Of a stretch of 14,706 nt of DNA, positions 1 through 13,992 are shown in pieces. How positions within the stretch are numbered: position 1 is the stretch's first letter; each line of letters starts with the position of its first letter. The position numbers and the translations under genes were made by a program. The notes under the pieces were generated by a model. That model ran no database searches. It had not been told where the DNA came from and saw nothing but the letters and a program-made list of their open reading frames with translations. Source of the stretch: Myxococcota bacterium (GTDB taxonomy: Bacteria; Myxococcota_A; UBA796; GCA-2862545); assembly GCA_044356535.1 (NCBI GenBank), contig JBIKWC010000004.1, positions 1-14,706 of the forward strand. The letters run 5' to 3'.

Positions 1-80
1 ACCTCCTCGACCTGTACCCCTTCGCGTACGACTCCCTCGGCTTCAACCTCGAGCTCACCACCTCGCTGAGTCAGTTCTGA
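1..80 (+). CDS. 3' end of a CDS that starts upstream of the window (product unknown)
   Basis: Frame 3 is open from the window edge to the TGA at 78-80 (...LLDLYPFAYDSLGFNLELTTSLSQF*). Third codon positions are strongly G/C-biased. The stop overlaps the next gene's ATG (TGATG at 78-82), which suggests translational coupling. Confidence 0.45.
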   Translation, partial: LLDLYPFAYDSLGFNLELTTSLSQF

Positions 81-511
81 TGCGCCTCTCCGCCCCGTTG
101 TGCCTCGTCGCGTCGCTCGCCACCGGCTGCGAGCGCGACCCTACGTTCTTCGGCTACTGGGACCTCGACCAGGTGACGCGCGGGGGGGTGGTCCAGGACG
201 ACATGGGGTTCCTGGAGATCCTCGAGGACGGCTCGGTCGCGGTGTTCGTCCGGTACACCTGGAGCGGCGGCGCGTTCGTGCCCGTGGCGCAGCCGGAGAT
301 CGTGCTCGGCACCACCGACGCGGTCGCGCAGGAGCCGTTCGGGAACTACAAGACCAAAGGCGAGACCTACGCCCTGCTGCTGGAGCCGTTCGACGCCACG
401 TTCGACGTCACCGACTACCGAGGGGACCGCGCCGAGCTCGATGCCGCGGAGGCCGGGTGGCCGACGGGCGCGGGGGAGCTCGCGCCGACCACGCTGCGCC
501 TGCTGCGCTGA
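80..511 (+). CDS. small secreted lipoprotein (143 aa), function unknown
   Basis: The ATG at 80 overlaps the upstream stop. The N-terminus MRLSAPLCLVASLATGC is a signal peptide with a lipobox (L-A-T-G-C). GC3 is high throughout. The protein has an acidic, non-repetitive composition. The stop is TGA at 509-511. Confidence 0.75.
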   Translation: MRLSAPLCLVASLATGCERDPTFFGYWDLDQVTRGGVVQDDMGFLEILEDGSVAVFVRYTWSGGAFVPVAQPEIVLGTTDAVAQEPFGNYKTKGETYALLLEPFDATFDVTDYRGDRAELDAAEAGWPTGAGELAPTTLRLLR

Positions 512-513
512 CG

Positions 514-1767
514 TCAGCAGGGGCCGTTCGGGTCGCCCGGGGTGCCGAGCTCGCCGTTCGGCATCACCGCGGTCGAGGGGCACCACTGCGTCCCGTCGCC
601 GTTGTCCACGCTTGCCCACGGCGTCCCCAGCTGCATCGACGCCCCCGTCTCGTCGGGCCAGTCGGTGCCGCCGTCCCACTCCACGCGGTCGAGCTCCGTG
701 CCGTCGGGCGCGGTGAGGATCAGCTCGTCGTCGCCGTTCCCGAGCGACATCGCGCTGCCCCAGCCCCACGCGGCGGAGATGCCGCCGTTCACCACCGGAT
801 CGGCGGCGGCGGCCAACACCACCGCGGCGCCCGGCGCCACGAGCACCGCCGTCGACACCGTGAAGACCTCGCCGTCCGCGTCCGCGACCTCGAGGCCGTC
901 CAGGTCCACCGTCGCCGCCGTCGTGTTCGTGAGCTCGAACCACTCGCCGTCGTCGTCCGGCACCGTCGTCACGTCCTGCATCACCTCGGTGATCACGAGG
1001 TCGCCGTCCTCGAGGTCGTCCACCCCGGTGGTGCCGCAGTCGTTGGCTGCGCCCGGCGTCCCGGCGTCGCCGGCGCCGAAGGGGGTGACTGCCACACACC
1101 ACGAGGTCGGGTCGCCGTTGTCGCCCTCGAGGCCCGGGAGCAGCGAGAACGACGCGCCCTGCGGGTCCGGCCAGGCGACACCAGCGTCCCACCGCACCTC
1201 GTCCACCACCACGCCCGCTGGGGTCAGCAACACGAGCTCGTCGTCGTCGTTCCCGAGCTGCATCGACGCCGGGTCGAACACGAAGTCCACGACCACGCCA
1301 CCGTTGCGGGACGGGTCGCCGTCCACCCCGAACACCAGGCGCTGCCCGGGCCCCACGACGAGCGTGACGTCGACGGTGAAGGCCTGGGTCGCTGCGTCGT
1401 TCTCCACGCGGAGCCCGCGCAGATCGAGGTCTCCGCTGGTGGCGTTCCACACCTCGAACCACTCCCCGAGCGTGTCCGAGACGGCGTCCGGGTTCTTCAG
1501 CACCTCGGTGATCACGAGGTCCCCGGCCGCGAGGTCACCCGCCGGCGGCCCGCCCGTGTCGGTGTCCGAATCGGTGTCGGTGTCGGTGTCCGAATCGGTG
1601 TCGGTGTCCGAATCGGTGTCGGTGTCGGTGTCCGCGTCGGTGTCGGTGTCGGTGTCGGTGTCCGCGTCCGTATCGGTGTCCGCGTCGGTGTCGGCCGCCT
1701 TGTCGAAGCTCGTGGCGGTGAACGGCGCGCAGCCGGCGGTGAGGACGAGCAGGGTTCTCAGGGACAT
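514..1767 (-). CDS. lipoprotein with an (Asp-Thr)n acidic linker and two lamin-tail domains (LTD)
   Basis: ATG at 1767 (minus strand) with AGGAG 8 nt upstream. The start overlaps the upstream gene's stop by 10 nt. N-terminus MSLRTLLVLTAGC is a signal peptide plus lipobox. A ~46-aa DTDADTDTDSDTDT linker follows. Two repeated modules show LTD hallmarks (GDLVITEV...LGEWFEVWN / GDLVITEVM...DGEWFELTN, with VDLxGL after each). It ends ...LGTPGDPNGPC*, with the stop at 516-514. Confidence 0.85.
   Translation of the reverse strand: MSLRTLLVLTAGCAPFTATSFDKAADTDADTDTDADTDTDTDTDADTDTDTDSDTDTDSDTDTDTDSDTDTGGPPAGDLAAGDLVITEVLKNPDAVSDTLGEWFEVWNATSGDLDLRGLRVENDAATQAFTVDVTLVVGPGQRLVFGVDGDPSRNGGVVVDFVFDPASMQLGNDDDELVLLTPAGVVVDEVRWDAGVAWPDPQGASFSLLPGLEGDNGDPTSWCVAVTPFGAGDAGTPGAANDCGTTGVDDLEDGDLVITEVMQDVTTVPDDDGEWFELTNTTAATVDLDGLEVADADGEVFTVSTAVLVAPGAAVVLAAAADPVVNGGISAAWGWGSAMSLGNGDDELILTAPDGTELDRVEWDGGTDWPDETGASMQLGTPWASVDNGDGTQWCPSTAVMPNGELGTPGDPNGPC
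1555..1696 (-). repeat. imperfect hexanucleotide tandem repeat (GTCGGT/GTCCGA/GTCCGC on the plus strand; (ACCGAC)n on the coding strand) encoding the (Asp-Thr)n linker
   Basis: Direct reading shows ~23 consecutive 6-nt units (gtcggtgtcggtgtccgaatcggtgtc...) with occasional cgaatc/cgcgtc variants. On the minus strand this translates to DTDADTDTDADTDTDTDTDADTDTDTDSDTDTDSDTDTDTDSDTDT, inside CDS 514..1767. Confidence 0.9.
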
Positions 1768-2984
1768 GGCGGGTTCTCCTCACCGGGGGTGCCGAGGTCG
1801 CCCGCCCCGTACCGCGAGTCTCCAGGGCACCAGTTCTCGGCGCGGTCGTTGTCTCCCGTGTTCGTGCGGCCCGCGTCGAGCGACTTGGACGCGCCCTCCA
1901 CGTCCGGGAACGTGGGGTCGTAGGCCACCTCGTCGAGCACGCGCGTGCCGTGGACCAGGCGGACCGTCTCGCCGGAGTTCGACAGCCCGAACGACCAGCG
2001 CCACTCCCAGTCGACCGGAGCGCCGCCGTTGACCTGCTGGGCGGTGAACGAGCCGAACACCACGTACCCGTCGGCCGGCACCACCAGCGACCGGTCGACG
2101 GTGAAGTCGTCGCCGTCGTCGTTCTCCACGCCCAGGAACTGCAGGTCGACCGGCTCGTCGAGCGCGTTGTGCACCTCGAACCACTCGCCGTAGTCGCCCT
2201 CCACCTCGGCCGGGTCGGACATCAGCTCGGTGATCACGAGGTCGCCCGGGACCACGTCGGCCAGGGTGAGCCCCGTGAACGGCGCTGGGCAGGCGGGGTT
2301 CGTCGCGCCGGGGGTCCCGCGGCCTCCGACCCCGTAGACGTCGTCGTCACCGGCCAGGCACCAGCGGTCCGCGTCCGGGTCCCGGCTGGTCGACCGGCCG
2401 GACTCGAGCGGCCAGGTCGCGTCCCAGGTGACCTCGTCGAACACCACGTCCCGCCAGGTCAGGCGGATGGCGTCCTCGTCGTTGGTGAGCCCGAAGTCGG
2501 CCTCCCACACCCAGTCCACCGCCACCCCGCCGTTGGCAACAGGCAGGTCCGAGCCGCCGAACACCACGCTCGCGCCGGCCTCCACCACGAGCGGCGCCGA
2601 CACCACGAAGTCGTCGCTGCCCAGGTCCAGCACCAGCAGCCCCTGCAGGTCGATCGCCTCGCCCCGCGTGTTGGTGACCTCGAACCACTCGCCCAATGCG
2701 CTGTCGACCCCCACCGGCGCCGGCAGGAACTCGGTCACCTGCAGCTCGCCGGGCGCCACCGCCGCGAGGGGCCACGCCTCGTCGTCTGCGCCGTCGCAGT
2801 CCTGGTCCTGCCCATCCCCCGGCGCGTCCACCCCGAGGGGCGAGACCAGCGGATCGGCGTCGTCGCAGTCCCCGTCGGCCGGACCGAACCCGTCGCCGTC
2901 GACGTCGAACACGGCCGGCACCCCGGTGGACAACAAGGCGCCGCTGCAGCCGGCGAGCAGGGCGAGGAGCGGGAGCGCGCGCAT
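1758..2984 (-). CDS. lipoprotein with a DGDG/DCDD 'putative metal-binding' motif region and two lamin-tail domains (LTD); paralogue of the downstream gene
   Basis: ATG at 2984 (minus) with GGAGG ~8 nt upstream. The ATG overlaps the upstream gene's TGA by one base (TGATG). N-terminus MRALPLLALLAGCSG is a signal peptide plus lipobox. Then VFDVDGDGFGPADGDCDDADP...DGQDQDCDGADDE resembles the myxobacteria-enriched metal-binding motif. Two LTD modules follow (GELQVTEFL...LGEWFEVTN; GDLVITELMSD...YGEWFEVHN). It ends ...LGTPGEENPPCP*. The 949-aa ORF in the track is an upstream in-frame Arg-rich artefact. Confidence 0.85.
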   Translation of the reverse strand: MRALPLLALLAGCSGALLSTGVPAVFDVDGDGFGPADGDCDDADPLVSPLGVDAPGDGQDQDCDGADDEAWPLAAVAPGELQVTEFLPAPVGVDSALGEWFEVTNTRGEAIDLQGLLVLDLGSDDFVVSAPLVVEAGASVVFGGSDLPVANGGVAVDWVWEADFGLTNDEDAIRLTWRDVVFDEVTWDATWPLESGRSTSRDPDADRWCLAGDDDVYGVGGRGTPGATNPACPAPFTGLTLADVVPGDLVITELMSDPAEVEGDYGEWFEVHNALDEPVDLQFLGVENDDGDDFTVDRSLVVPADGYVVFGSFTAQQVNGGAPVDWEWRWSFGLSNSGETVRLVHGTRVLDEVAYDPTFPDVEGASKSLDAGRTNTGDNDRAENWCPGDSRYGAGDLGTPGEENPPCP

Positions 2985-4081
2985 CAGGGACCTCCGAGGG
3001 GGAGCGCGCCCGCGAGGCGGGTCTGCAGGTGCAGGAACACGGTGTCGGTGCGGGCCAGCACCGCGCTGCCGGCGAGGGGAGCAGCGTCGGGGCCGAACCG
3101 GCGGGCCTCCCACCCCAGCACCAGCGCGGTCGGTGCGCCGGGCTCCGGCGGAAGGCGCAGGCCCGCGCCCAACAGCGCCAGGGTGGAGGCGGCGCCCGGC
3201 GCAGTGGGCAACGCGGTGGTGCGGTCCACGCGCCCGAAGGCGGCGAGGGGCGTCTGGTCTCCGCTGCGGGCCCACACCGAGGCGCCCGCGGGCCGCAGCG
3301 ACCCGTCTCCGAGGAGCCCCGTGCCCAGGAGGCCGTCCACACCGGCCGCGACCCAGGGGTGGGCGATGGAGACCATGGCCCCGGCGCGGTGATCGGGCGA
3401 CTGGCCGAGCCCGTAAGAGCCGTCGCGGCCCATCACCCCGAGCATCAGGTCCAGGTCGCTCCCGCTGCGTGCCAGCGGGTGGGCCCGGGCCACGACCGTG
3501 GTGTTCACGCCGTCGTTGCGCTCCCGGCGCTGGAAGCCCTCGCCCGAGGTCACCGACACCGTCACGTCCACGAGGTCGTCGGGGGCCGTCCACGACAGCC
3601 AGCCGCCCACGTCCGACCGGGTGAAGAAGGCGCTCTCCGTCACCATCGGACGCAACAAGGGGCGCCAGGCCCAGCCCGGCTGCACCGTCATCACCCAGGG
3701 GTCGTCCACCACGCCCCCGGCGACCGTAAGGCCCGCTTGGCGCCAGTCCCAGCGCGCCTCGGCGGTCTGCACCACGGGGACCAGGCTCTCGCCCGCGACG
3801 CCCACGTAGCCCTGCTCTCCGCCCGAGCGCAGCGGCAGCAGCACGATCCGGGCCTGGGCGTCCCCCGCCGAGCGCACCCCGAGCTCGGCCCGCGCCCACG
3901 GCAGCGACACCCCGCGCGACACGCCGGTGTCCGGGAACGACGCCCCCAGGCGGCCCGCAGCGCCCACGTCGCCGAACAGGCAGCCCCCGTCGAGGGGTTC
4001 GGCGCCGAGCGGTTCGGCCCGGGAGATCGGCGCGGGCGCGCAGTCGGCGGCCTCGGCGGAGGGGGTGAAGGCGAGGATCAT
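2984..4081 (-). CDS. hypothetical protein (365 aa), Gly/Ala/Leu-rich, no recognisable domain
   Basis: ATG at 4081 (minus) overlaps the upstream stop (ATGA). Its TGA at 2986-2984 overlaps the downstream ATG. Codon bias is good over the whole frame. In-frame sequence upstream of the ATG is Arg-rich junk. The N-terminus MILAFTPSAEAADCAPAPI is not a classical signal peptide, so the start or localisation is uncertain. Confidence 0.6.
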   Translation of the reverse strand: MILAFTPSAEAADCAPAPISRAEPLGAEPLDGGCLFGDVGAAGRLGASFPDTGVSRGVSLPWARAELGVRSAGDAQARIVLLPLRSGGEQGYVGVAGESLVPVVQTAEARWDWRQAGLTVAGGVVDDPWVMTVQPGWAWRPLLRPMVTESAFFTRSDVGGWLSWTAPDDLVDVTVSVTSGEGFQRRERNDGVNTTVVARAHPLARSGSDLDLMLGVMGRDGSYGLGQSPDHRAGAMVSIAHPWVAAGVDGLLGTGLLGDGSLRPAGASVWARSGDQTPLAAFGRVDRTTALPTAPGAASTLALLGAGLRLPPEPGAPTALVLGWEARRFGPDAAPLAGSAVLARTDTVFLHLQTRLAGALPLGGP

Positions 4082-5460
4082 CGTCCGTACGCTCCGAGCA
4101 GGGGTCCGAACGTGTCGAGCGCCGACACGAACAGTGCGTGGTCCGCGAGGGTGCGGTCGAGGTCCGGCAGCGCGTCCGCGACCCGCTCGTCGACGAAGGC
4201 GTCCGTACGGCCCCGCAGATCGGTCCACAACGCAGGCAGGGCGGGCTCGAGCTCGTGCGTGACGGTGCGCGCGTGGGCGCCGCCCAGCACGCCGCCCAAC
4301 ACCCGGGCCAGCGCCAGGGCGTCGTCGGTCCGGAGCGCTTCGAGGTCGCGGAGGGCCTTGTTGTGGTCGAGGGACTCCTGGAACGACGACCAGGTCTGGG
4401 TCTTGAACCCCTGGGCGCCGTCCGTGACGCCCCCGAGGCGCACGTCGGCGTCGGGGCGGGACCACAGGAGCTCCGCGGCGGCCACCAGGCGGGCGGGGTT
4501 GTCGTCGAACGACGCAGCGGGGATGGCCCACGAGTCCGGCAGGACCGGCGGATCCACGACCTCCCGCAGCTGAAGGAGCTCGTCGTCTTCGGGGCCCGGC
4601 GCGCCACGGTCCCAGGCCACCACGTACCGGAGGGCGGGGAGCGAGGCGATCCCAGCGCTCTCGCGGCGGGCGACGTCGAGCACGCGGAAGCCGTCGGGCG
4701 CGGGCCAGCGGGAGAGGAGGTGGTCGAGCTGCGCGTGTTGTTCTGCGTCGAGCGAGAGGAGCTCCGGCGCCCCGGGCCGGAACCGTCGACCCGAACCCAC
4801 CACCTCCGTGGCCTCCACGAGCTGCTCCCGCGTCACGCCTTCCTCGGTGACGTCGGTCCACAGGTGGTCCACGACGATCCCGCGGTCGGTGGGGACCGCA
4901 GGCCCCGTCCCCACCCCGGTGGTCGCGACCTGCTCGAGCTCGGTCACGTACGCCTCGGTGAACGCGCGCGCAGCCTCCTCGAGCGCTGGACGCGGGTACC
5001 CGGCGGCGTCCAACAACACCAGGAGGCCGAGCACCCCGCGGCGCACGTCCACGATGTAGGGGCCGAACCCGGCGCCGTCGAAGTCGTTGAACTCGAGCCG
5101 CAGCGGGACCTCGCCCGCCGTCGGACCGGGCCCCTCTCCGGGGAGGAAGGTGCCCACGTTCTCGGGGTGCGGATCGCCCACCAACAACACGGCGGCCGAG
5201 CCGGGGACGGAGACGAAGGCCGTGGGCGCGCGCCCGGTTCCGGGGCGGTCGAGGTCGCGCAGGAACACCGCGAGCGAGCCGCGCATGTAGTCGTAGGGGT
5301 CCTCCGCCATCGCGGCGTACTTCTCGGCCAGCGCGTCCCAGCGCCCCTCCCACACCCGGTTGTCGTCGGTGAGGGTGTCGACGAGCCACGCGCGCCGGAA
5401 CGCCTCCGGGGCAGTTGCGCCCGAACACCCCACCAGGAGCGCAGCCACTGCGATCCGCAC
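4078..5460 (-). CDS. DUF2252-like lipoprotein (460 aa), first gene of the minus-strand operon
   Basis: GTG at 5460 (minus), preceded by GAGGTGG. N-terminus (M)RIAVAALLVGCSG is a signal peptide plus lipobox. The motifs YDYMRGSLAVFLRD and LLVGDPHPENVGTF resemble the conserved FYRG...A.DL and CGDAHL.NFG blocks I associate with DUF2252 proteins; this is pattern recall, not a search. The stop at 4080-4078 overlaps the next ATG. Confidence 0.75.
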   Translation of the reverse strand: MRIAVAALLVGCSGATAPEAFRRAWLVDTLTDDNRVWEGRWDALAEKYAAMAEDPYDYMRGSLAVFLRDLDRPGTGRAPTAFVSVPGSAAVLLVGDPHPENVGTFLPGEGPGPTAGEVPLRLEFNDFDGAGFGPYIVDVRRGVLGLLVLLDAAGYPRPALEEAARAFTEAYVTELEQVATTGVGTGPAVPTDRGIVVDHLWTDVTEEGVTREQLVEATEVVGSGRRFRPGAPELLSLDAEQHAQLDHLLSRWPAPDGFRVLDVARRESAGIASLPALRYVVAWDRGAPGPEDDELLQLREVVDPPVLPDSWAIPAASFDDNPARLVAAAELLWSRPDADVRLGGVTDGAQGFKTQTWSSFQESLDHNKALRDLEALRTDDALALARVLGGVLGGAHARTVTHELEPALPALWTDLRGRTDAFVDERVADALPDLDRTLADHALFVSALDTFGPLLGAYGR

Positions 5461-5595
5461 CCACCACCTCGCGAGCGGGCTATCGGGCGAACCTCCGCGC
5501 GGCGGTGCCGTCTCGCATTCGTTGCGCAGCCCTCACGGGTTGGTCACACGGTGCGGCGGCGCCGCGTCGACTACAGTGCCGGCCCGGAGGGGTGG
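5461..5595. promoter_or_regulatory. divergent intergenic region, presumably holding promoters for the minus-strand lipoprotein operon and the plus-strand sensor/channel operon
   Basis: 135-bp non-coding gap between the divergent starts at 5460 (-) and 5596 (+). It contains a GGAGGGG ribosome-binding site at 5586-5592 for the plus-strand gene. I cannot read confident -35/-10 hexamers in this GC-rich context. Confidence 0.3.
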
Positions 5596-6702
5596 ATGTC
5601 GTTCGGCAGGCACGTCGTGGTGGTGATGGTGGTGTCGGCGGCCGCGGTCCTGCTCGGCAGCCTCGCCGTCGCCGACGGTCTGTTCGGCTCCCTCGTCGAG
5701 AAGGTCGAGGTCGACCGGTACCAGGCGATCGAGACCGCCCTGGTCGATCGCCTGGAAGAGGCGCAGAACAAGGCCCTCGCGCGCGCCACGATGGTCGCTG
5801 CCCTCCCCAGCGTGCAGGCGCTCGTGGCGGCCCAGGATCGGACCGGACTGCAGGCGGAGCTGGCCGAGCTGTACCAGTCCGCGCACGACCGCGGCGGGGT
5901 GGCGCAGGCCCAGTTCCACGTCCCGCCAGCGACCTCGCTCCTGCGGCTGCACGCGCCCGAGCGGTTCGGCGACGACCTGTCGAAGTTCCGCCCCATGGTC
6001 GTCGACGTGAACCAGGACCACGAGACCCGGAAGGGGCTGTCCATCGCCGTCGCGGGGCCCGCCATCTTCGGCATCACCCCCGTCCACGACGCCGCCGGCG
6101 CCCACGTCGGGAGCTTCGAGATCGGGCTCGACGTGGCGGATGCCCTCGACGCCCTCAAGGCGCGCTTCGAGGTGGACGCCGCGATCTGGCTCGACGAGAA
6201 GACCCTGCGCGACGTGGCCACCGGGGCCCCGCCCGGCAGCCTGTCGGAGGACAAGCGCGTGGGGCGCTTCCTGCGCTGGCACAGCACCCACGACGAGCGC
6301 ACCGCCGGCCTCGTCTCCGACGCCGACCTCGACGGGGGCGCGCACCGCTACGTGCGCGAGGTGCAGGGCGTGGCCTACGGGGTCGCGCTGGTGCCCGTCA
6401 CGAACTACGCGGGCAAGCCGCTCGGGGTCGCCATGGTCGCCGCCGACTTCAGCTCCTCGCGCGGTGCCCGCCTGCGTACCCGGGTGTGGTTGGGGCTCGT
6501 CGGGCTCGTCGGGAGCACCGTCCTCGCCGGCATCGTGTCCGTGGGCATCCGCGGCTTCGTGCTCCGCCCGCTCGGTTCCGTCGCGGCGACGCTCAAGGCG
6601 GTGGCGGACGGCGACCGGTCGAAGGGGCTCGAGACGGATGGGTTGTGCGCCGAGTTCGAGCCCGTGGCCGCCGAGATCGAGCGCCTGCGGAGCCGGCCGT
6701 GA
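5596..6702 (+). CDS. membrane protein with TM, a periplasmic Cache-like sensor domain, a second TM and a HAMP domain, and no output domain
   Basis: ATG at 5596, 4 nt after GGAGGGG. TM1 is HVVVVMVVSAAAVLLGSLAVA. The ~260-aa periplasmic region contains FHVPPATSLLRLHAPERFGDDLSKFRPMVVDV and ...YVREVQGVAYGVALVPV blocks typical of Cache-type (double-Cache / Cache_3-Cache_2-like) chemoreceptor or kinase sensors. TM2 is VWLGLVGLVGSTVLAGIVSVGI. It is followed by VLRPLGSVAATLKAVADGDRSKGLETDGLCAEFEPVAAEIERL, which has the HAMP pattern (P...A..GDL.......DE...L...FN.M). The protein ends 8 aa later at TGA 6700-6702. Confidence 0.8.
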   Translation: MSFGRHVVVVMVVSAAAVLLGSLAVADGLFGSLVEKVEVDRYQAIETALVDRLEEAQNKALARATMVAALPSVQALVAAQDRTGLQAELAELYQSAHDRGGVAQAQFHVPPATSLLRLHAPERFGDDLSKFRPMVVDVNQDHETRKGLSIAVAGPAIFGITPVHDAAGAHVGSFEIGLDVADALDALKARFEVDAAIWLDEKTLRDVATGAPPGSLSEDKRVGRFLRWHSTHDERTAGLVSDADLDGGAHRYVREVQGVAYGVALVPVTNYAGKPLGVAMVAADFSSSRGARLRTRVWLGLVGLVGSTVLAGIVSVGIRGFVLRPLGSVAATLKAVADGDRSKGLETDGLCAEFEPVAAEIERLRSRP

Positions 6703-7748
6703 CCCCGGCGCTCGCGGTGCTCGTCTCTGGGTCCGCGTTCGCCGCGCCCGAAGGGGTGACGCTCCCGACGGGCCGGGGGCTCCCCGTCCGGGTGCGGGTG
6801 GGTGTCCAGTACGTCGACGTGGGAAGCGTCGACGAGAACGCGCACACCTTCGACGGAACGGTGGATCTCCGGGCCGTGTGGATCGACGGCCGGGAGGCCT
6901 CGGCGCGCCGCGACGTCCTCGAGCTGCGCGGCGAGGCGCTGGAGGGCGCGCTCGACCAGACCTGGATCCCCGAGCTCGCCGTGGACAACCTCGTGGGCGA
7001 ACCCGCCCGGCTCGAGCGCACGTTGTCGGTCGCGCCCTCCGGCGAGCTCGAGCTCCTCCAGCGCGTCACCGGCACGTTCGCGATCCCCTTCGACCCTGCC
7101 GACTTCCCGTTCGATCGGAACGCGCTCGAGGTCGCGGTCGCCGTGCGCGGCGACGACACCAACCGCGTGGCGCTCGACTTCGTGCAGGCCGACCTCGCCT
7201 TCAGCCACGCCAACCCGGGTGTCGTGGTGCCCGGCTTCGACCATGGCCTCGTGGACCTCCGCCGCGCGCCGATCCGCGGCTGGCACGACGTCCTGCACAG
7301 CCGCGTCGTGGCTGCGCTCGCGGTCCGGCGGGTGGCCAGCACCACCATCCCGGCGGTGTTCCTGCCGCTGTTCGCGTCGTTGCTCATCCCGTTGCTGGCC
7401 ACCTGGCTCAACGACGTGGAGGACGGCTCGTTCAAGGTCGACGCGTTCGAGCTCGCGAACGTCGTCGTCGGCGGGCTGTTCGCGGTGATCGCGCTCAACT
7501 TCGCCATCGCCTCGAGCTACACGGACCTGGCCAGCGGCGACAACACGGTCAACCGCCTGTTCGCGTTGAACTACTCGGCGTTGGGCGTCGCCCTCCTGAT
7601 CGTGATCGTGTTGTACCGCTTCCGGTTCGTCGAGCGGTGGCTCGGCGCGTCGGTGCAGGAGGAGCTGTTCCGCTGGCTCGTGTGGGGGGTGCCCACGATC
7701 GTGTTCGGCGCGGCCGTGGCGGTGGTGAGCGCCGCCTGGGCGGGTTGA
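6699..7748 (+). CDS. prokaryotic pentameric ligand-gated ion channel (pLGIC / Cys-loop receptor family, GLIC/ELIC-like) homologue
   Basis: GTG at 6699 overlaps the upstream TGA (GTGA). Signal peptide (M)TPALAVLVSGSAFAAPEG. The extracellular domain has the family pattern VRVRVGVQYVDVGSVDENAHTFDGTVDLRAVWIDGR, then WIPELAVDNL, and the signature FPFD (IPFDPADFPFDRNALEV) with no Cys pair, as in bacterial members. Four C-terminal TM helices follow. M1 is TTIPAVFLPLFASLLIPLLATWL with the conserved Pro. M2 is ELANVVVGGLFAVIALNFAIASS, close to GLIC M2. M3 is NRLFALNYSALGVALLIVIVLY. M4 is FRWLVWGVPTIVFGAAVAVVSAA. Total length 349 aa. Confidence 0.85.
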   Translation: MTPALAVLVSGSAFAAPEGVTLPTGRGLPVRVRVGVQYVDVGSVDENAHTFDGTVDLRAVWIDGREASARRDVLELRGEALEGALDQTWIPELAVDNLVGEPARLERTLSVAPSGELELLQRVTGTFAIPFDPADFPFDRNALEVAVAVRGDDTNRVALDFVQADLAFSHANPGVVVPGFDHGLVDLRRAPIRGWHDVLHSRVVAALAVRRVASTTIPAVFLPLFASLLIPLLATWLNDVEDGSFKVDAFELANVVVGGLFAVIALNFAIASSYTDLASGDNTVNRLFALNYSALGVALLIVIVLYRFRFVERWLGASVQEELFRWLVWGVPTIVFGAAVAVVSAAWAG

Positions 7749-8687
7749 TCAGCGGAGCGAGCGGGCCAGCCGCACCCGCAGCGTTTCGTCGTCCAGGAGC
7801 TCGGCCATCGCGGCTACCCGGGACTGCGCGTGTTGGTCTCCCGGGCGGATCCGCAGGACCATCAAGAGCGCCATCGCGCGGAGGCGCACGTGGCCTCCGT
7901 CTCCGGCGTGCCGGGCGGCGTCGGCGGCGTGGGCCAGGGCCTCGTCGGCGCGTCCGGACCGCCACGCGGCGTAGGCCAGGCCGTTGCAGCGGCGGGCGCG
8001 GGCGAAGGGGGGCCCGATCTCGGGGAGCGAGCGGTACAGCGCCTCGGCGCCAGCGTGGTCGCCAGAGGCGTTCCGTCGGAACGCGTGGTGATCGACCCAC
8101 CGAGCGCGCAGCACGGAGGCGGTGTCGCGGTCGGCGACGAGGGGCAGCGCGGCCTCCACCTCGTCGAGCAGCGTGAGGTCGCGCTCGCGGGCCTTGGTCG
8201 CCACGAAGTCGTCGGCCAGCCGACGCTCGATGCGGGCCTCGGGTGGGGCGTGGGCTTCGTCGCGGCGGGCCTCGGCGGTGGCGGCGGCCATGGCCCCGGT
8301 GTCGTGTGCGCGCTGCGCCACGGACGCGCGAGCGAGGGCGAGCCAGACCCGGGCCTCGGGAGCGGCCGTGACCGGCGGGTGGTCCCAGGCGCGGATCAGG
8401 TCGGCGCAGACGGACACGGGCAGGTCGGTGAACCGCGAGTGGTACGCGCCCATCCACGCGAGGCGGCGGAGGACCTCTCCAGGGAGCCCGAACCGCCGGA
8501 GCAACCGCTGGCCCCACTGCCCTCCGTCCCGGGTGCCGCGGGCCCGCAAGCGGCGGAGCGCGCGCTCGGTCGAGGCCGGCGTGGTCGGCGCCAGGGTCTC
8601 GGCGAGCGCGGTGAGGGTACCGTGTTCGGAGACGAGGGCGTCGAGGTAGGCGGCCCAGTCGTAGCCGGGCGGGGCAGTGGTGGGCAT
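7749..8687 (-). CDS. hypothetical helical protein (312 aa), possibly a TPR-like or regulatory protein
   Basis: ATG at 8687 (minus); MPTTAPPGYDWAAYLDALVSEHGTLTALAETL... Coding bias is consistent. The C-terminal half is Ala/Arg-rich with helical-repeat character (NGLAYAAWRSGRADEALAHAADAARHAGD). The stop at 7751-7749 abuts the convergent pLGIC stop (TGATCA). No confident domain assignment. Confidence 0.65.
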   Translation of the reverse strand: MPTTAPPGYDWAAYLDALVSEHGTLTALAETLAPTTPASTERALRRLRARGTRDGGQWGQRLLRRFGLPGEVLRRLAWMGAYHSRFTDLPVSVCADLIRAWDHPPVTAAPEARVWLALARASVAQRAHDTGAMAAATAEARRDEAHAPPEARIERRLADDFVATKARERDLTLLDEVEAALPLVADRDTASVLRARWVDHHAFRRNASGDHAGAEALYRSLPEIGPPFARARRCNGLAYAAWRSGRADEALAHAADAARHAGDGGHVRLRAMALLMVLRIRPGDQHAQSRVAAMAELLDDETLRVRLARSLR

Positions 8688-8750
8688 GTCCGGGATCGTG
8701 TCCGGTCCGCGGCGGGGGCCGGGGGCTACCGGGTGGGCAGGAGGTGGAAC

Positions 8751-9776
8751 GTGAACCGGACCATCATCATCGGAGACATCCACGCGTGCCACGCCGAGCT
8801 CGTCGAGCTCCTGGACGCCGTCGGCCTCACCCCCACGGACCGGCTGATCAGCGTCGGGGACGTGGTCGATCGGGGCCCCTCGCCGGGGGAGGTCGTGGAC
8901 CTGCTGCGGTCGCGCCCGAACACAGTCGTGGTGTGCGGGAACCACGAGCGCAAACACGTGCGGGGCCAGCAGACGCCCGGGCTCCTCGGCTTCGGCCAGG
9001 AGATCACCCGGCTGCAGCTGGGGGCGCGCTACGCGGAGGTCGTGGCGTGGATGGCCACACTGCCCTACTCGTTCGAGGACGACGCCGTGCGCGTGGTCCA
9101 CGCGGGCCTGATCCCGGGCACGCCGCTGGGTGACACCCCCGCGGACATCCTGTCGGGCACGACCAGCGGCGAAGCCCGCCTCCGGGAGCAGCTGGGGGGC
9201 GTCTACTGGCCGGAGCTGTACACCGACGACAAGGTGGTGGTGTTCGGGCACCACGTGGTGGGCCCGGAGGCGCTGGTGGTGCGCGACCGGGTGTACGGCC
9301 TGGACACGGGCTGCTGCCACGGCCAGTTCCTGACGGCGCTGATCCTGCCGGAGCGGCGCCTGGTCTCGGTGCGGGCCCACGCGAACCACTGGAAGCAGAC
9401 GCAGCAGCGTTGGCAGCTCCCGGTGCTCGCTTCTCGGCCCTGGGCAGCGTGGACGTTCGACCAGGTGGCGAAGAAGGCAGCAGAGCTGACGGACCGACAC
9501 CCGGCAGCTGCGGACTGGCTGGCTTCGGTGGTGGCGTGGTCGGAGGCAGTGTTGGGCTGGGTCCCCGCGCTGGCGGACGCGATGGACACGCGGTTGGCGG
9601 GGGTCGCGGACGCGCCCCGGGACCTCGTGGGCCACCCGGCGCACCCGACGCTGGTCCGGTACGCCCAGGGCAAGCTGTCGAGGACCCACCTGGGCTGCAC
9701 CTCGCCCGCCGCGGTGTTCGCGCTCGCGGACGCGCTGGGCGTACCCGTGGCGCTCCCGCGGTCGCCTCCGGGGTGA
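8751..9776 (+). CDS. PPP-family metallophosphoesterase (Ser/Thr protein phosphatase / ApaH-like) with a ~120-aa C-terminal extension
   Basis: GTG at 8751, 6 nt after AGGAGG (8739-8744). Canonical motifs are present: IIIGDIHAC (a GDxHG variant), GDVVDRGP (GDxVDRG), and GNHE. Downstream come VVHAGL and GHHV. 341 aa. The C-terminal ~120 aa (WKQTQQRWQLPVL...) lie outside the phosphatase core. Confidence 0.85.
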   Translation: MNRTIIIGDIHACHAELVELLDAVGLTPTDRLISVGDVVDRGPSPGEVVDLLRSRPNTVVVCGNHERKHVRGQQTPGLLGFGQEITRLQLGARYAEVVAWMATLPYSFEDDAVRVVHAGLIPGTPLGDTPADILSGTTSGEARLREQLGGVYWPELYTDDKVVVFGHHVVGPEALVVRDRVYGLDTGCCHGQFLTALILPERRLVSVRAHANHWKQTQQRWQLPVLASRPWAAWTFDQVAKKAAELTDRHPAAADWLASVVAWSEAVLGWVPALADAMDTRLAGVADAPRDLVGHPAHPTLVRYAQGKLSRTHLGCTSPAAVFALADALGVPVALPRSPPG

Positions 9777-9860
9777 GCCATCGGAGGCATCGTCCGCATC
9801 GACGTGTCTTGATTCCGGCGACCCCCGGTCGGGCCCCGAGGTGCGGGGTAAGGTGGGACC

Positions 9861-10190
9861 ATGGATCCGTCGCCGCTGTCCACGTTTCTCGCCCAGCTCG
9901 AGGACCCTGGGGAGTGCTGGCCCCTCTCGGCCGCGATCGCTGCGGCGGCGCCGACGCGGTGGCAGCCCGGCGGACCGTTGCTCGTGGTGGAAGAGCACAC
10001 CGCGTGCAGCGCCCCGCCCGTCCGTGATCCCGGTCTCGCGTTCGGAGCGGTGCCGCCTGCGCCGCTTCTGGCCGACCTCGCGCAACGCGCCGCAGCGCGG
10101 TGGACCACCGGGGAGGGCTGGCTCCGCGTCTCCCACCCGCTGTCGCCGACGGACGCATCGCCGGGAGCGGCCCGGTTCCTGCGTCGTGGC
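9861..10190 (+). CDS. questionable small ORF, or remnant of a frameshifted gene, in the 415-bp gap between convergent genes
   Basis: ATG at 9861 preceded by AAGGTGGG. The first ~110 codons (MDPSPLSTFLAQLEDPGECWPLSAAIAAAAPTRWQPGGPLLVVEEH...) have reasonable GC3 bias. The frame has no stop until 11153 and runs exactly antisense, codon-aligned, to the acyltransferase gene from 10191. The true end is therefore undefined. The end coordinate I give is only the point where antisense overlap begins. Confidence 0.2.
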
Positions 10191-10961
10191 TCAGCGCGCC
10201 AGGTCGTCCAGCGCGGCCTGCATCTGCGCGACGATCCCGTCGTAGAGCCCCTGCAGGATCGCAGGATCGTCGGCTGCCTCCGGCGGGTGACCGAGCGCCA
10301 CCGGCGGCAGGAACCGCGTGGTGCACTTCACGGGCAGGGGCAGGTGGAACATCGGACCCAGCGCCACCCCCCACGGCAGGCCCAGGAACAGCGGCCAGGT
10401 GTCGCTTCGCAGCCACTGATCCGCGCCGATCGCGTGCGCCAGCCGCCGTCCATCCCGGAGCACCACGAACCCGGAGTGGCCGCCGTGGTTCACCATCGGC
10501 ACCACGGGGACCTGGTGCCGCAGCGCCAGCTTCAGCCAGCCCGTCCGGCCCTCGAAGTGGATGCGGTTCCGGTCGCGCCAGGGGCGGAACGCCTCGGCGT
10601 TGCCCCCCGGGAACACGATGACCTTGCGGCCCCGCGCGAAGGCCGTGGCTGCAGCGTCGTGGCCTGCGCGCACCGCGCCCACCCGCGCGAGCAACGAACC
10701 CAGGAGCGGCGCATCGATCACGGCGTCGTGGGTCAGTCCCTGCCAGGGATCCTCCACGCCGCGTTCGCGCAACCAGCGGGCGCCCACGCCGATCGCCTCC
10801 ACGAACGTGACGCCCGAGTTGTGGTTGCCGACGAGCAGCGCGGGACCCGCCGGGATGGTCTCGAGGCCCTGCACCTCGAGCCGGAACCACAGGCGGCACG
10901 CGCGATCCACCCACGGCGCGAGTCGCCGGGCCAACTCCGGGTCGAAGGTGTCGGGTTCCAC
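10191..10961 (-). CDS. LPLAT-superfamily (PlsC-like) lysophospholipid/glycerol-phosphate acyltransferase
   Basis: Minus-strand frame ends TGA at 10193-10191 (...AILQGLYDGIVAQMQAALDDLAR*). The acyltransferase blocks PALLVGNHNSGV (motif I region) and RKVIVFPGGNAEAF (FPEG-type motif III) are present. The start is uncertain: GTG at 10961 gives 256 aa, and an alternative GTG at 10991 would overlap the divergent esterase's ribosome-binding site. Confidence 0.7.
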   Translation of the reverse strand: MEPDTFDPELARRLAPWVDRACRLWFRLEVQGLETIPAGPALLVGNHNSGVTFVEAIGVGARWLRERGVEDPWQGLTHDAVIDAPLLGSLLARVGAVRAGHDAAATAFARGRKVIVFPGGNAEAFRPWRDRNRIHFEGRTGWLKLALRHQVPVVPMVNHGGHSGFVVLRDGRRLAHAIGADQWLRSDTWPLFLGLPWGVALGPMFHLPLPVKCTTRFLPPVALGHPPEAADDPAILQGLYDGIVAQMQAALDDLAR

Positions 10962-10992
10962 CTGGCTCGGGTATCCTGCGCCGGAGGCCACG

Positions 10993-11850
10993 ATGTTGCT
11001 TTCGTTGCTCTCGCTCGGATGCCGCTCGGAAGAACCCGACCCGGACAGCCCGGACGCGCCCGACGAGACCGCCCACTCCGGGGGCACCGGGTCCGGGGGC
11101 CACGTCCCCGCCGACCCGTCCCCCGGCTGCGCGAGCGGGGCTGGCCTGGCTGACGGAGACCACCAGCTCCTCGTCGACGGCCTCCAGCGGGAGTACGCGT
11201 CGCGGGTCCCGGCCCTGGCGGGTCCGTTGCCGCTCGTCGTGGACCTCCACGGCACCGGGGGCACCCGTCGCCTGCAGCAGCGCCTGTCCGGGCTCGACGA
11301 CCTGGCAGAGGCCGAAGGGTTCGCCATCGTGTGGCCGGAGAGCCTCGAGCTCGGGCCCGTGAAGGCCTTCGACATCAGCTGCGACAACGCCGACGTGGAC
11401 TTCGTGGTGCAGCTCGTCGAAGCCGTCGGCCGGGACGTGTGCATCGATCGGGCCCGCACGTTCGTGACGGGGCTCTCGAACGGCGGGTACTTCTCGAACG
11501 TCCTGCTGGCCACCCACCCGGAGGTCTTCGCAGCCGGTGGGCCGGTCTCGAGCGGCCTGGGCGTGGTCCCCAGCCAGTGCCCCACGACCACCCCCCGGCC
11601 GGCCACCTTCGTCCACGGCGACGCCGACGAGTTCGTCGACCCCTCCGAGTCCGAGGAGGCGATGACCTGGTGGTCGGCGGTGAACGGTTGCACTGGGACA
11701 GACACCGACGCCGAAGGCTGTTCGGTCGGCACGGGGTGCGTGGCCCCCACCCGCCTGTGTCTCGGACCCGGCGCCACCCACATCGACATCTACGCGCGGT
11801 ACGACACCACTGCGCGCCTCACCGAGCTGTTTCGCGCCGCCGTGCCCTGA
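10993..11850 (+). CDS. lipoprotein esterase of the PHB-depolymerase / LpqC-like alpha/beta-hydrolase family
   Basis: ATG at 10993 with GGAGG 5 nt upstream. N-terminus MLLSLLSLGC is a signal peptide plus lipobox. Family motifs: PLVVDLHGTGG, GFAIVWPE, and a nucleophile elbow GLSNGG (G-x-S-x-G) in ...RARTFVTGLSNGGYFSNVLLATHPEVFAAGGPVSS. 285 aa. TGA at 11848-11850. Confidence 0.85.
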   Translation: MLLSLLSLGCRSEEPDPDSPDAPDETAHSGGTGSGGHVPADPSPGCASGAGLADGDHQLLVDGLQREYASRVPALAGPLPLVVDLHGTGGTRRLQQRLSGLDDLAEAEGFAIVWPESLELGPVKAFDISCDNADVDFVVQLVEAVGRDVCIDRARTFVTGLSNGGYFSNVLLATHPEVFAAGGPVSSGLGVVPSQCPTTTPRPATFVHGDADEFVDPSESEEAMTWWSAVNGCTGTDTDAEGCSVGTGCVAPTRLCLGPGATHIDIYARYDTTARLTELFRAAVP

Positions 11851-11867
11851 CGAGGTAGGCTCGCCCC

Positions 11868-13148
11868 ATGGCCAAGAGCGCAGCCGTGGAAGTCGAGGCC
11901 GCCGGGCGGCTGGTGCGGGTGTCCAACCCCGACAAACCCTGGTTCCCGGAGGCCGGGATCACCAAGCTCGAGGTGGTCCGCTACTACCTCGCGGTGGCGG
12001 ACGGCGCGCTGCGTGGGGTGTGGGGTCGGCCCATGCAGCTCGAGCGGTACGTCGACGGCGTCACCGAGCCGCCCTTCTACCAGAAGCGCGCGCCCGACAA
12101 GGGCCGCCCGGAGTGGATCGAGACCGTCACGCTGCGGTTCCCGTCGATGCGCACGGCCGAGGAGGTCGTCGTCCGCGACGCCGCCCAGCTCGTGTGGATC
12201 GTGAACCTCGCGTGCCTGTCGCTGCACCCACACCCCGTGCGCACCACCGACCTCGATCATCCCGACGAGCTGCGGATCGACCTCGATCCCGTCCCGGGCG
12301 TGCCGTTCTCCGAGGTGCTGGAGGTGGCCCGGGAGACCCGCGCGCTGCTGACCGAGCTCGGGCTCACCTCCTGGCCCAAGACCTCGGGGTCGCGCGGTGT
12401 GCACCTGCTGGTCCGGCTCCAGCCGCGGTGGACGTTCCCCGAGGTCCGTCGGGCCGCCCTCGCCATCGCGCGGGAGGTCGAGCGCCGGATGCCCGGGAGG
12501 GCCACGTCGAAGTGGTGGAAGGAGGAGCGCCAGGGCGTGTTCCTCGACTACAACCAGAACGCGAAGGACCGCACCACCGCCAGCGCGTACTCCGTCCGGG
12601 CGCGCCCCGACGGTCGGGTGTCGATGCCGTTCCGCTGGGACGAGCTCGACGGCCTCGACCCCGCCGCCTTCACCGTGCGCACGGTCCCGGGGCTGTTCCT
12701 CGCGAACGGAGACGCCCACGAGGGCATCGACGACGTGGCGCACGAGCTCGGCCCCGTCCTGGCGCTCGCCGACCAGCAGGGCGAGGCGGACGCGCCGTGG
12801 CCGCCGCACTTCCCGAAGGGGGAAGGCGAGCCCGCACCGGTGGCGCCGAGCCGCCAGCGGACAGAGCCGGGTACCGGCCGCCGCAAGCCGACGAAGCCCT
12901 TGCGCACCGTGGCCGAGTCGGAGTCCCTCGACGACGCCACGGCGGGGCTCGAGCGCTGGAAGGCCCGCCACGCCGAGGTCGTACCGCACCTGTTGCCCGC
13001 CGACGTGCTCGTCGACAAGATGCGGGGCCGGTACAGGCCGTGGTTCCGGATCCGCGTGAACCTCGAGCACGTGCCCCTCGCGCTCCACCCGCCGGTCGAG
13101 CCCCCAGACCCCGACGCCGCCCCCAAGGCTGCGTGGGGACCGGGGTGA
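11868..13148 (+). CDS. ligD: stand-alone LigD polymerase/primase domain protein (NHEJ PolDom, archaeo-eukaryotic primase fold)
   Basis: ATG at 11868 (GAGGTAGG upstream). N-terminus RLVRVSNPDKPWFPEAGITKLEVVRYY and the catalytic block SWPKTSGSRGVHLLV (KTSG.RG.H) are hallmarks of the LigD Pol domain. 426 aa with a Pro/Arg-rich C-terminal tail. There is no ligase or nuclease domain in this ORF. TGA at 13146-13148. Confidence 0.88.
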   Translation: MAKSAAVEVEAAGRLVRVSNPDKPWFPEAGITKLEVVRYYLAVADGALRGVWGRPMQLERYVDGVTEPPFYQKRAPDKGRPEWIETVTLRFPSMRTAEEVVVRDAAQLVWIVNLACLSLHPHPVRTTDLDHPDELRIDLDPVPGVPFSEVLEVARETRALLTELGLTSWPKTSGSRGVHLLVRLQPRWTFPEVRRAALAIAREVERRMPGRATSKWWKEERQGVFLDYNQNAKDRTTASAYSVRARPDGRVSMPFRWDELDGLDPAAFTVRTVPGLFLANGDAHEGIDDVAHELGPVLALADQQGEADAPWPPHFPKGEGEPAPVAPSRQRTEPGTGRRKPTKPLRTVAESESLDDATAGLERWKARHAEVVPHLLPADVLVDKMRGRYRPWFRIRVNLEHVPLALHPPVEPPDPDAAPKAAWGPG

Positions 13149-13594
13149 CGGAGTCCGCCGAGGCGCGCGAGCGCCAGACCGTCGCCAGCCTCTTCGTGCT
13201 GCACGCCGCGCTGCTGATCGGGTTCGACGTGGTGACGGGCTTCGCCTCGCTCCGCACCACCGCCATGACGGCCGCGGTCTCCCAGGACGCCGGGAACGGC
13301 TGGCAGATCGGGGGCCCGGCCCTGGTGGCGCTGCTCCAGTTCGTCGCTGCGGCGGGCGTCCTGGCCTGCGGGGGCTTCGAGGGGTACGCCGGGGCCCGGC
13401 TGCTCCAGGGTCACGTGCTCCCCACCCGCGGCCCAGCCCTCGCGGGTCTCGTGGGCTCCGTCCTCCTGCTGCCCACGTCGGTGGTGGGCTGCAGCGCGTG
13501 CGGGTTCCTGGGCTGGCCCCTCGCGCTGGGGGTGGCGCTGTCGACCGCGTTCGTCGCGTTCCGCGCGCCCGACCCGCGCGCTGGGGATCGCTGA
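13145..13594 (+). CDS. small hydrophobic membrane protein (149 aa), function unknown
   Basis: GTG at 13145 overlaps the ligD-Pol stop (GTGA). There are several hydrophobic stretches (LFVLHAALLIGFDVV; IGGPALVALLQFVAAAGVLACGGF; LAGLVGSVLLLPTSVVGCSACGFLGWPLALGVALSTAFVAF). GC3 bias is good. The start could instead be the internal ATG (MTAAVSQ...). Confidence 0.55.
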   Translation: MTESAEARERQTVASLFVLHAALLIGFDVVTGFASLRTTAMTAAVSQDAGNGWQIGGPALVALLQFVAAAGVLACGGFEGYAGARLLQGHVLPTRGPALAGLVGSVLLLPTSVVGCSACGFLGWPLALGVALSTAFVAFRAPDPRAGDR

Positions 13595-13686
13595 CGGCGA
13601 ACGTCCGCGGGCGTCCGCGCGGAGGCGCCAGCCGACGGCACGGGCCCTGCGGTGGGAGGCACGGTCCCCGGACCGGAGGAGCGCCC

Positions 13687-13980
13687 ATGCCCACCGAACC
13701 TCGACCCACGCCGCCCGCAGCCGGACTCGCCCGGTGGGAGGAGGACGGAGGAACCCCGGCCCTTCCGCTGGCGTTCGTGCCCCCGTCACCCGATGAGGAG
13801 CGGTCGCTGCTGCTCCTCGGCGCCGCGGTGGTGCAGCAGTGGAACCTGTTGGCCATGCCGGTCCGCCGCCAGCTGTTCGACGCTGCGCTCGCGCGCGCCG
13901 GCGCCCCCGAGCTGGCTGTGGTGCAGCGGCTCCTCGCCCGGTTCCTGCACGTCCACAAGGACGATGCCCCTACCTCCTGA
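13687..13980 (+). CDS. small hypothetical protein (97 aa)
   Basis: ATG at 13687, 6 nt after GGAGGA (13675-13680). MPTEPRPTPPAAGLARWEEDGGTPALPLAFVPPSPDEERSLLLLGAAVVQQWNLLAMPVRRQLFDAALARAGAPELAVVQRLLARFLHVHKDDAPTS*. Codon bias is consistent. No known motif. Confidence 0.5.
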   Translation: MPTEPRPTPPAAGLARWEEDGGTPALPLAFVPPSPDEERSLLLLGAAVVQQWNLLAMPVRRQLFDAALARAGAPELAVVQRLLARFLHVHKDDAPTS

Positions 13981-13992
13981 CCTGGAGTCCGC

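Follow-up and report, generated by a model that had tools for sequence, protein, structure and literature searches.

Bacterial pentameric ligand-gated ion channels, or pLGICs, among them GLIC, ELIC, sTeLIC and DeCLIC, serve as leading models of neurotransmitter receptor structure. To our knowledge, the physiological roles and natural stimuli of the bacterial channels are largely unknown, and GLIC, the proton-gated channel of Gloeobacter violaceus, is the product of a solitary gene and has no Cache-HAMP partner. The prototype HAMP structure is that of Af1503, and we know of no channel partner for this protein either. Af1503, from Archaeoglobus fulgidus, is a non-signalling transmembrane (TM) protein that lacks an output domain and carries a C-terminal HAMP domain (PMC3585426). 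The subject of this report is a gene pair in which a receptor ending in this way stands directly upstream of a pLGIC gene. It lies in a stretch of 14,706 nucleotides (nt) from a Myxococcota bacterium (assembly GCA_044356535.1, contig JBIKWC010000004.1, positions 1 to 14,706 of the forward strand), referred to here as the window, and consists of a sensor gene (5596..6702, +) and a channel gene (6699..7748, +). The reading that we favor, and consider reasonably likely, is that the sensor is a Cache-HAMP receptor derived from methyl-accepting chemotaxis proteins (MCPs), minus their kinase-control module, that serves as the obligate partner of the GLIC-like pLGIC, forms a complex with it and modulates its gating.

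Genetic linkage between a Cache protein and a bacterial ligand-gated ion channel (LGIC) has been reported before. Tasneem, Iyer, Jakobsson and Aravind (2005) described a predicted operon in Rhodopseudomonas palustris with an ART-LGIC and a "stand-alone Cache domain" gene, noted MCP-N/Cache-LGIC fusions, proposed functional cooperation, and drew a parallel to the Cache-containing alpha2-delta subunits (PMC549065). Their system resembles the window pair in joining a Cys-loop-type channel to a Cache protein, but it concerned one bacterium, and no mention was made of a HAMP domain, of translational coupling or of family-wide obligate pairing. No Rhodopseudomonas member occurs among the sensor homologue matches listed or the loci of our species scan, and the R. 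palustris operon is at most a candidate member of the present family. The alpha2-delta protein of animal voltage-gated Ca2+ channels is likewise a dCache-containing, extracellular accessory subunit of a cation channel (PMC8915833), but the likeness is by analogy only, as it belongs to the dCache_1 family, serves another channel superfamily and has no HAMP domain. A search of the available literature library for pLGICs with HAMP, Cache or operon partners and for HAMP-only receptors returned nothing beyond the 2005 study and the Af1503 papers. We rate both kinds of system, the HAMP-terminal receptor and the Cache-associated bacterial LGIC, as already known, and the window pair as a variant of both.

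The sensor gene is an intact open reading frame (ORF) of 368 codons, running from an ATG at 5596 to a TGA at 6700-6702 and preceded by a Shine-Dalgarno-like GGAGGGG (5586..5592, +; read from the sequence). Its 368-residue (aa) product comprises TM1, a dCache_3 domain, TM2 and a HAMP domain, and then stops, with the translated C-terminus …EIERLRSRP. The GC content of the window is 73.6%, and GC by codon position identifies that of ATG 5596 as the coding frame over ~5550-6600, with GC1/2/3 of ~0.77/0.45/0.95 in that frame, before a switch to the +2 frame over ~6700-7700. An AlphaFold2 (AF2) model of the sensor, a monomer prediction built on 30 homologues, has a predicted local distance difference test (pLDDT) score of 90.7. 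The statement of the initial annotation that the ORF stops right after its HAMP domain is borne out by the intact frame, the GC3 signal and this model. The distance that it gave, eight residues after the second HAMP helix, is in fact two residues after that helix (AS2) as predicted by AF2 (352-366).

In the model, the region between the two TM helices consists of two PAS-like modules in tandem, carried by a long stalk helix. TM1 (~residues 7-27; 5614..5676, +), the hydrophobic run HVVVVMVVSAAAVLLGSLAVA, forms the N-terminal part of AF2 helix 3-68, which holds both TM1 and the stalk. The periplasmic double-Cache sensor domain (residues 39-286; 5710..6453, +) is recognized by Pfam, AF2 and Foldseek alike. 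Pfam dCache_3 (PF14827) matches residues 39-286 with an E-value of 1.6e-28 and 100.4 bits, against a gathering score of 25.7, and Foldseek pairs the periplasmic part with the dCache ligand-binding domains of Mlp24/37, PctA, Tlp3, TlpA, DctB and KinD (probability 1.00), all of which belong to chemoreceptors and kinases. A second long helix (286-337) spans stalk, TM2 (~residues 296-318; 6481..6549, +; hydrophobic run VWLGLVGLVGSTVLAGIVSVGI) and the first HAMP helix, AS1, after which loop 338-351 and helix 352-366, the latter corresponding to AS2, complete the protein. The sensor therefore has TM1 with its N-terminus inside, a periplasmic dCache_3 domain, TM2, a cytoplasmic HAMP domain and an end at the close of AS2. 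Homologues of the sensor are labeled in databases either "methyl-accepting chemotaxis protein", which is the JGI name for the window protein, or "cache domain-containing protein". The first label is wrong for the window protein, which has no match to PF00015 and stops two residues past AS2. No NCBIfam model matched the sensor. Some family members that also end after HAMP carry additional N-terminal modules: a 4HB_MCP four-helix bundle precedes dCache_3 in two of them (P0248 and P0273), and a third (P0257) has tandem dCache_3 domains in a protein of 745 aa.

The C-terminal module (residues 319-366; 6550..6693, +) is treated here as a divergent HAMP domain, made up of AS1 (319-337), a connector (338-351) and AS2 (352-366). 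The Pfam HAMP model (PF00672) matches residues 319-365 over profile positions 3-48 of 53, the protein ending slightly short of the model end, and reaches 13.9 bits against a gathering cut-off of 25. Profile-profile comparison supports the assignment. When the last 55-70 residues of the family were aligned by hhalign with the HAMP domains of homologous MCPs, a match was obtained (94.8%, E 5.4e-8, 53 columns) that lies directly after TM2 and spans AS1, connector and AS2. In those MCPs, Pfam HAMP scores above cut-off at residues 317-374, the same place after TM2. The helix-connector-helix architecture of the AF2 model is joined in the family alignment by the conserved AS1 proline and AS2 glutamate, P325 being invariant and E353 at least 90% conserved. 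All top matches in the Protein Data Bank (PDB) to the C-terminal profile were Af1503 HAMP entries, with E-values from 0.011. Like the sensor, Af1503 has a cytoplasmic C-terminus that consists of a HAMP domain without an output domain, but the likeness is weak and limited to HAMP, the comparison having covered the C-terminal module.

Homology to chemoreceptors extends much further. MCPs of the type dCache_3-HAMP-MCPsignal(-CZB), represented by L082 and L083 of Marinospirillum and by P0302 and P0310, are homologous to the sensor over TM1, dCache_3, TM2 and HAMP, with profile E-values of ~1e-58, 31-33% identity and HAMP at the same residue positions. They differ in possessing the methyl-accepting signalling domain and in lacking an adjacent pLGIC; the Marinospirillum proteins, for instance, are full MCPs (dCache_3-HAMP-MCPsignal-CZB) without a channel. 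In an exhaustive profile search, the next-closest proteins past the sensor family were MCPs and other long receptors. The best reading is that the family descends from dCache_3-HAMP chemoreceptors and has lost everything past HAMP.

Directly downstream, the channel gene encodes a protein of 349 aa with a short signal peptide, a beta-sandwich extracellular domain (ECD) and helices M1-M4. It is a GLIC-like pLGIC subunit, for which assembly into a pentamer and ion conductance are predicted from sequence and model. Neur_chan_LBD, the Pfam ligand-binding domain (LBD) model, matches the window channel with an E-value of 2.6e-4 and 20.9 bits, under its gathering score of 26, and PF02931 is recorded in most channel homologues; NCBIfam returned LGIC models only, with scores far below cutoff. 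A phmmer comparison with GLIC gave an E-value of 8e-14. The AF2 model of the channel, made from database protein homologues, has a pLDDT of 89.6 and a predicted template-modeling score (pTM) of 0.82, and Foldseek aligned it with GLIC over ~335 columns (E ~1e-21, TM-scores 0.74/0.83). Identity to GLIC is 21-23% at TM-scores of 0.74-0.83, and the two share the full-length fold, the FPFD Pro-loop, the pre-M1 arginine and four TM helices. In the window channel the beta-sandwich LBD is followed by a pre-M1 Arg and four hydrophobic helices, M1-M4, and the FPFD Pro-loop (residues 136-139; 7104..7115, +) is invariant in the channel family. Conserved aromatic residues occur in the ECD, such as W180 and W195 in the beta9-beta10 region.

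The family departs from GLIC chiefly in and around M2. An extended cytoplasmic M1-M2 loop (~residues 237-250; LNDVEDGSFKVDAF; 7407..7448, +) is conserved and predicted to form a small beta-hairpin, with strands at 239-241 and 244-246 between M1 (213-236) and M2 (249-273) and a pLDDT of ~77-80 (DSSP assignment of the AF2 model). Its consensus is …N-x-x-EDG-x-F-x-[IV]-[ED]-x-FE…, in which G243, F250 and E251 are invariant. The linker is ~9-10 residues longer than that of GLIC, judged from the phmmer alignment and the GLIC M2 sequence. Phenylalanine 261 in mid-M2 is also invariant in the family and is unusual compared with GLIC. The channel is probably cation-selective: Glu251, which sits where M2 opens towards the cytoplasm, is invariant, and going by the selectivity filters of pLGICs this suggests a preference for cations.

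The N-terminal region of the channel varies within the family. The window channel (6699-6790) has an unusually short signal sequence, MTPALAVLVSGSAFA followed by AP, without Arg or Lys. Its closest orthologue, L165, is 368 aa long (V-RRHLALIGAVLLLALAVLGFA…) and has 19 more residues at the N-terminus, and nearly every channel homologue begins with M-R/K-R. An alternative start further upstream, which would give the window channel an Arg-rich N-terminus read from the out-of-frame HAMP region, was rejected on the ground that its nearest orthologues keep the GTGA junction. Long, low-complexity linkers rich in Pro, Ala and Glu (60-100 aa) lie between signal peptide and LBD in some channels of Myxococcota and Rhodomicrobium; the genes with such linkers (L055, L056, L057, L069, L077 and L081) encode proteins of 417-455 aa.

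Several lines of sequence comparison indicate that the early end of the sensor is natural and not an artefact. In a search covering 5.8 billion proteins, 115 homologues with 37-73% identity and ~100% coverage were found, all of 357-385 aa, and mostly of 363-385 aa, apart from contig-end fragments (218-331 aa), and their Pfam content is PF14827 only. With a second family member as query, there were 386 matches at E ≤ 1e-40, and the 120 listed have lengths of 330-421 aa. The best ~65 cluster representatives (50% identity) from the exhaustive profile search are mostly 360-400 aa long, and nearly all aligned members have 2-17 residues beyond AS2. At E<1e-30 the family comprises upwards of 900 such representatives. 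The window protein itself (P0001) is recorded, with identical sequence, by JGI and NCBI on two contigs, one of 7.6 kb and one of 78.7 kb, and the independent gene calls made there gave products of 368 and 349 aa whose genes overlap by 4 nt. Finally, the 1050 nt after the sensor encode the channel in another frame, with no coding potential there for an output domain.

These data bear directly on the idea that a longer MCP or kinase gene has been cut short, either by an indel made in sequencing or by a nonsense or frameshift mutation of recent date. HAMP domains do generally precede an output domain, and one related draft genome is frameshifted at this very junction, but hundreds of homologues stop at the same place, the following sequence is a channel gene in the other frame, the same protein is found on two independent contigs, and the HAMP domain is under purifying selection (below). 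The artefact or pseudogene reading was rejected on these grounds, and we give it practically no chance of being correct. The frameshifted draft genome is that of Shinella sp. CPCC 101442, in which sensor and channel read as one ORF of 739 aa (L053:4001-6220). Its interpretation as a designed fusion was also rejected, since a 1-nt frameshift lies inside AS2 and the ancestral tail and junction are intact in the +1 frame (…RIRNRRAEPEKAP, a stop, then TAAGATG). Probably either the assembly is at fault here or the mutation arose very recently. The case does show that topology would allow a fusion, with the signal peptide as a third TM helix. No fusion proteins occur among the top 120 channel homologues.

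On this evidence, the proposal in the initial annotation of a natural "sensor-HAMP only" protein is supported by conserved length and end point across homologues, and the alignment with orthologues that it called for finds them ending at the same point, the two closest sharing GTGA at the same column. Some of its detail needs correction. The downstream sequence is not in-frame, as was stated, but in the +2 frame, with its GTG at 6699 overlapping the sensor stop by 4 nt. It does encode a different protein, as proposed, and this protein, described there as periplasmically targeted with its own signal peptide, is specifically a pLGIC. Conservation agrees that there is no fusion disrupted by a frameshift, but the topological argument used was weaker than claimed, as the signal peptide could be a third TM helix. 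It was conservation of the end point, and not topology, that decided in favor of a natural truncation.

Sensor and channel are joined by a 4-nt GTGA overlap (6699..6702, +), which holds the TGA stop of the former and the GTG start of the latter. Within the end of the HAMP coding sequence, 6 nt ahead of the channel GTG, is a Shine-Dalgarno-like GGAG (6689..6692, +), kept as GG(A/G)G in the two closest orthologues (L164 and L165; 71-73% identity), which also have their …CGTGA junction at the same alignment column. The arrangement is general. An overlap of 4 nt, (A/G/T)TGA, is present in 99 of 110 unique complete pairs, and 108 of the 110 fall within 4 nt. This overlap of stop and start makes it probable, from sequence, that translation of the channel is coupled to that of the sensor.

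Pairing of the two genes was followed in both directions. The sensor-selected set contained 83 loci, 3 from full genomes and 80 from scanning a single genome of each species. Wherever there was sequence to inspect, tblastn placed the channel directly downstream on the same strand; the exceptions among the 83 were two contig ends and the two distant Marinospirillum MCPs. The channel-selected set contained 80 metagenome loci, 11 of which are cut by contig ends, and the sensor was upstream in all 69 that had at least 390 nt of upstream sequence. To judge from record titles, the carriers in the species scan belong to the Alpha- and Betaproteobacteria, Verrucomicrobiota, Acidobacteriota, Myxococcota, Planctomycetota, Chloroflexota, Riflebacteria and others, and include the cultured Azorhizobium oxalatiphilum CCM 7897 and Rhizobium herbae DSM 26427, along with strains of Polaromonas, Brevundimonas and Mesorhizobium. 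In Alphaproteobacteria bacterium SO-S41, Mesorhizobium sp. ASY16-5R and a metagenome-assembled genome, the pair has its 4-nt overlap amid unrelated flanks. We define the cassette as a sensor of ~365-385 aa ending after HAMP with a channel directly downstream on the same strand, at an overlap or a gap of ≤4 nt, and the window pair conforms to this definition. Obligate two-way pairing combined with overlap is typical of co-translated subunits of one complex, to the extent that gene order and sequence can indicate it. As an example of multiplicity, the isolate genome of Aquabacter sp. CN5-332 has two separate cassette copies (L033 and L062) on different contigs.

The sensor might nonetheless be an independent truncated receptor, a decoy or heterodimerizing modulator of full-length MCPs or kinases that is merely co-transcribed with the channel. 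Its closest output-bearing relatives are MCPs, and Af1503 sets the example of a HAMP-terminal membrane protein without a known partner. Such independence is hard to reconcile with obligate two-way pairing in every testable locus across many phyla with otherwise unrelated neighbors, or with the overlapping stop and start codons of ~90% of pairs, typical for subunits of one complex, and we consider it quite improbable. Tight translational coupling would equally fit co-assembly, which raises another alternative: a biogenesis factor that folds, assembles or stabilizes the pentamer instead of regulating it acutely, in the manner of NACHO and RIC-3 with the pLGICs of animals. Dedicated membrane chaperones exist for the animal channels, but a well-conserved dCache fold of ligand-binding type and a HAMP domain are signalling modules and not chaperone modules. 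Other bacterial pLGICs, GLIC for one, assemble unaided. An assembly role for the sensor deserves marginally less credence still.

Ligand delivery is a third alternative to a signalling partnership, and it turns on what the HAMP domain is for. Here the Cache domain would capture a periplasmic small molecule, concentrate it and present it to the LBD of the channel, and HAMP would be a remnant used for dimerization or anchoring, without a part in signalling. Tasneem et al. put forward such a role for PBP-II and Cache genes that share operons with LGICs of bacteria (PMC549065), and the sensor has a likeness to the stand-alone periplasmic binding proteins found beside other bacterial LGICs. It also agrees with the retention of conserved aromatics in the channel ECD (W180, W195) and with the weak conservation of the HAMP connector and AS2. 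However, TM1 alone would suffice as an anchor, the C-terminal end point is strikingly constant, and throughout the many phyla of the family each member has kept TM2, AS1 and the whole HAMP domain, under purifying selection (dN/dS 0.19-0.27). On 211 close pairs (the all-pairs calculation was saturated), dN/dS is 0.25 for HAMP (AS1 0.19, connector 0.29, AS2 0.27), 0.15 for dCache and 0.22 for TM2; from these substitution rates, the HAMP domain is kept by purifying selection. We regard delivery as unlikely, though the least so of the alternatives raised here.

The obligate partnership of a Cache-HAMP receptor with a pLGIC provides a probable explanation for the missing output domain of the sensor: the pairing with the channel is obligate and overlapping, and the channel therefore probably replaces that domain. 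In mechanistic terms, sensor and channel would form a complex in the inner membrane, in which the dCache-HAMP protein would be a sensory or accessory subunit. Binding of a ligand to Cache would be relayed through TM2 and HAMP, through periplasmic contacts between Cache and ECD, or through both, and would modulate channel gating, the channel standing in for the absent cis output domain. Possible routes of contact are Cache against ECD, packing between TM helices, and HAMP against the enlarged M1-M2 loop. We infer the physical interaction, the direction of signalling and the role of the M1-M2 loop as a HAMP docking site from the features described above. A more specific version, in which HAMP signals in trans to the channel, the M1-M2 hairpin docks HAMP, and a periplasmic chemical cue is converted directly into a flow of cations and an altered membrane potential, is a tentative proposal that we hold to be rather doubtful.

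Several observations weigh against the favored reading. The Pfam HAMP match is sub-threshold, and the model finds a match (E<1) in only 6 of 30 family members, with a best E-value of 0.0015. Within the protein, conservation is lowest in the HAMP connector and AS2, at 28-38% mean identity, a level as compatible with a structural cap as with a specific docking surface. Covariation between the two proteins, calculated as mutual information with average product correction on 110 pairs (effective number of sequences, Meff, 64), was noise, and its top pairs were topologically inconsistent, matching for example cytoplasmic HAMP residues with periplasmic ECD residues. There is also a mismatch of symmetry, in that HAMP is usually a homodimeric four-helix bundle and a pLGIC is a pentamer.

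Elsewhere in the window, scans for sigma-70-like promoters and terminators over 5350-7950 found none, which is unsurprising in 74% GC DNA. The channel stop (7746-7748) abuts the stop of a convergent minus-strand gene (7749-~8690) with a weak TPR match, leaving no intergenic space at 7746-7751, where no terminator-like hairpin was found. Tandem paralogues at 514-1767 (-) and 1758-2984 (-) encode secreted or lipoprotein-like products with two Lamin-tail (LTD) domains each; a long run of Asp-Thr/Asp-Ser dipeptides (DTDADTDTDADTDTDTD…, ~nt 1540-1690) occurs in the first and a MopE-like metal-binding motif in the second. Together with the 74% GC, gene content points to a Myxococcota-like host. The remaining neighbors are genes for a DUF2252 protein (4078-5460, -), a calcineurin-like metallophosphoesterase (8750-9776, +) and a LigD primase-polymerase domain protein (11868-13148, +; E 3e-84), and the start of a homocysteine S-methyltransferase-like gene (13981-14706, +). 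Other genomes with the cassette have none of these four beside it.

This pLGIC subfamily, whose genes always accompany that of a Cache-HAMP receptor-like protein and overlap it, offers a testable handle on what these channels sense, and on how an accessory sensor could gate pLGICs. It also corrects a misannotation, since hundreds of proteins labeled "methyl-accepting chemotaxis protein" have no signalling domain. In the pair, a HAMP domain would have a separate membrane protein, instead of a domain in cis, as its "output", and this may supply a rationale for HAMP-terminal receptors such as Af1503. Should HAMP signalling in trans to the channel prove true, HAMP/Cache receptors would gain a new class of output, a bacterial pLGIC would for the first time have a defined physiological input, and the Cache-containing auxiliary subunits of channels would have a counterpart in bacteria.

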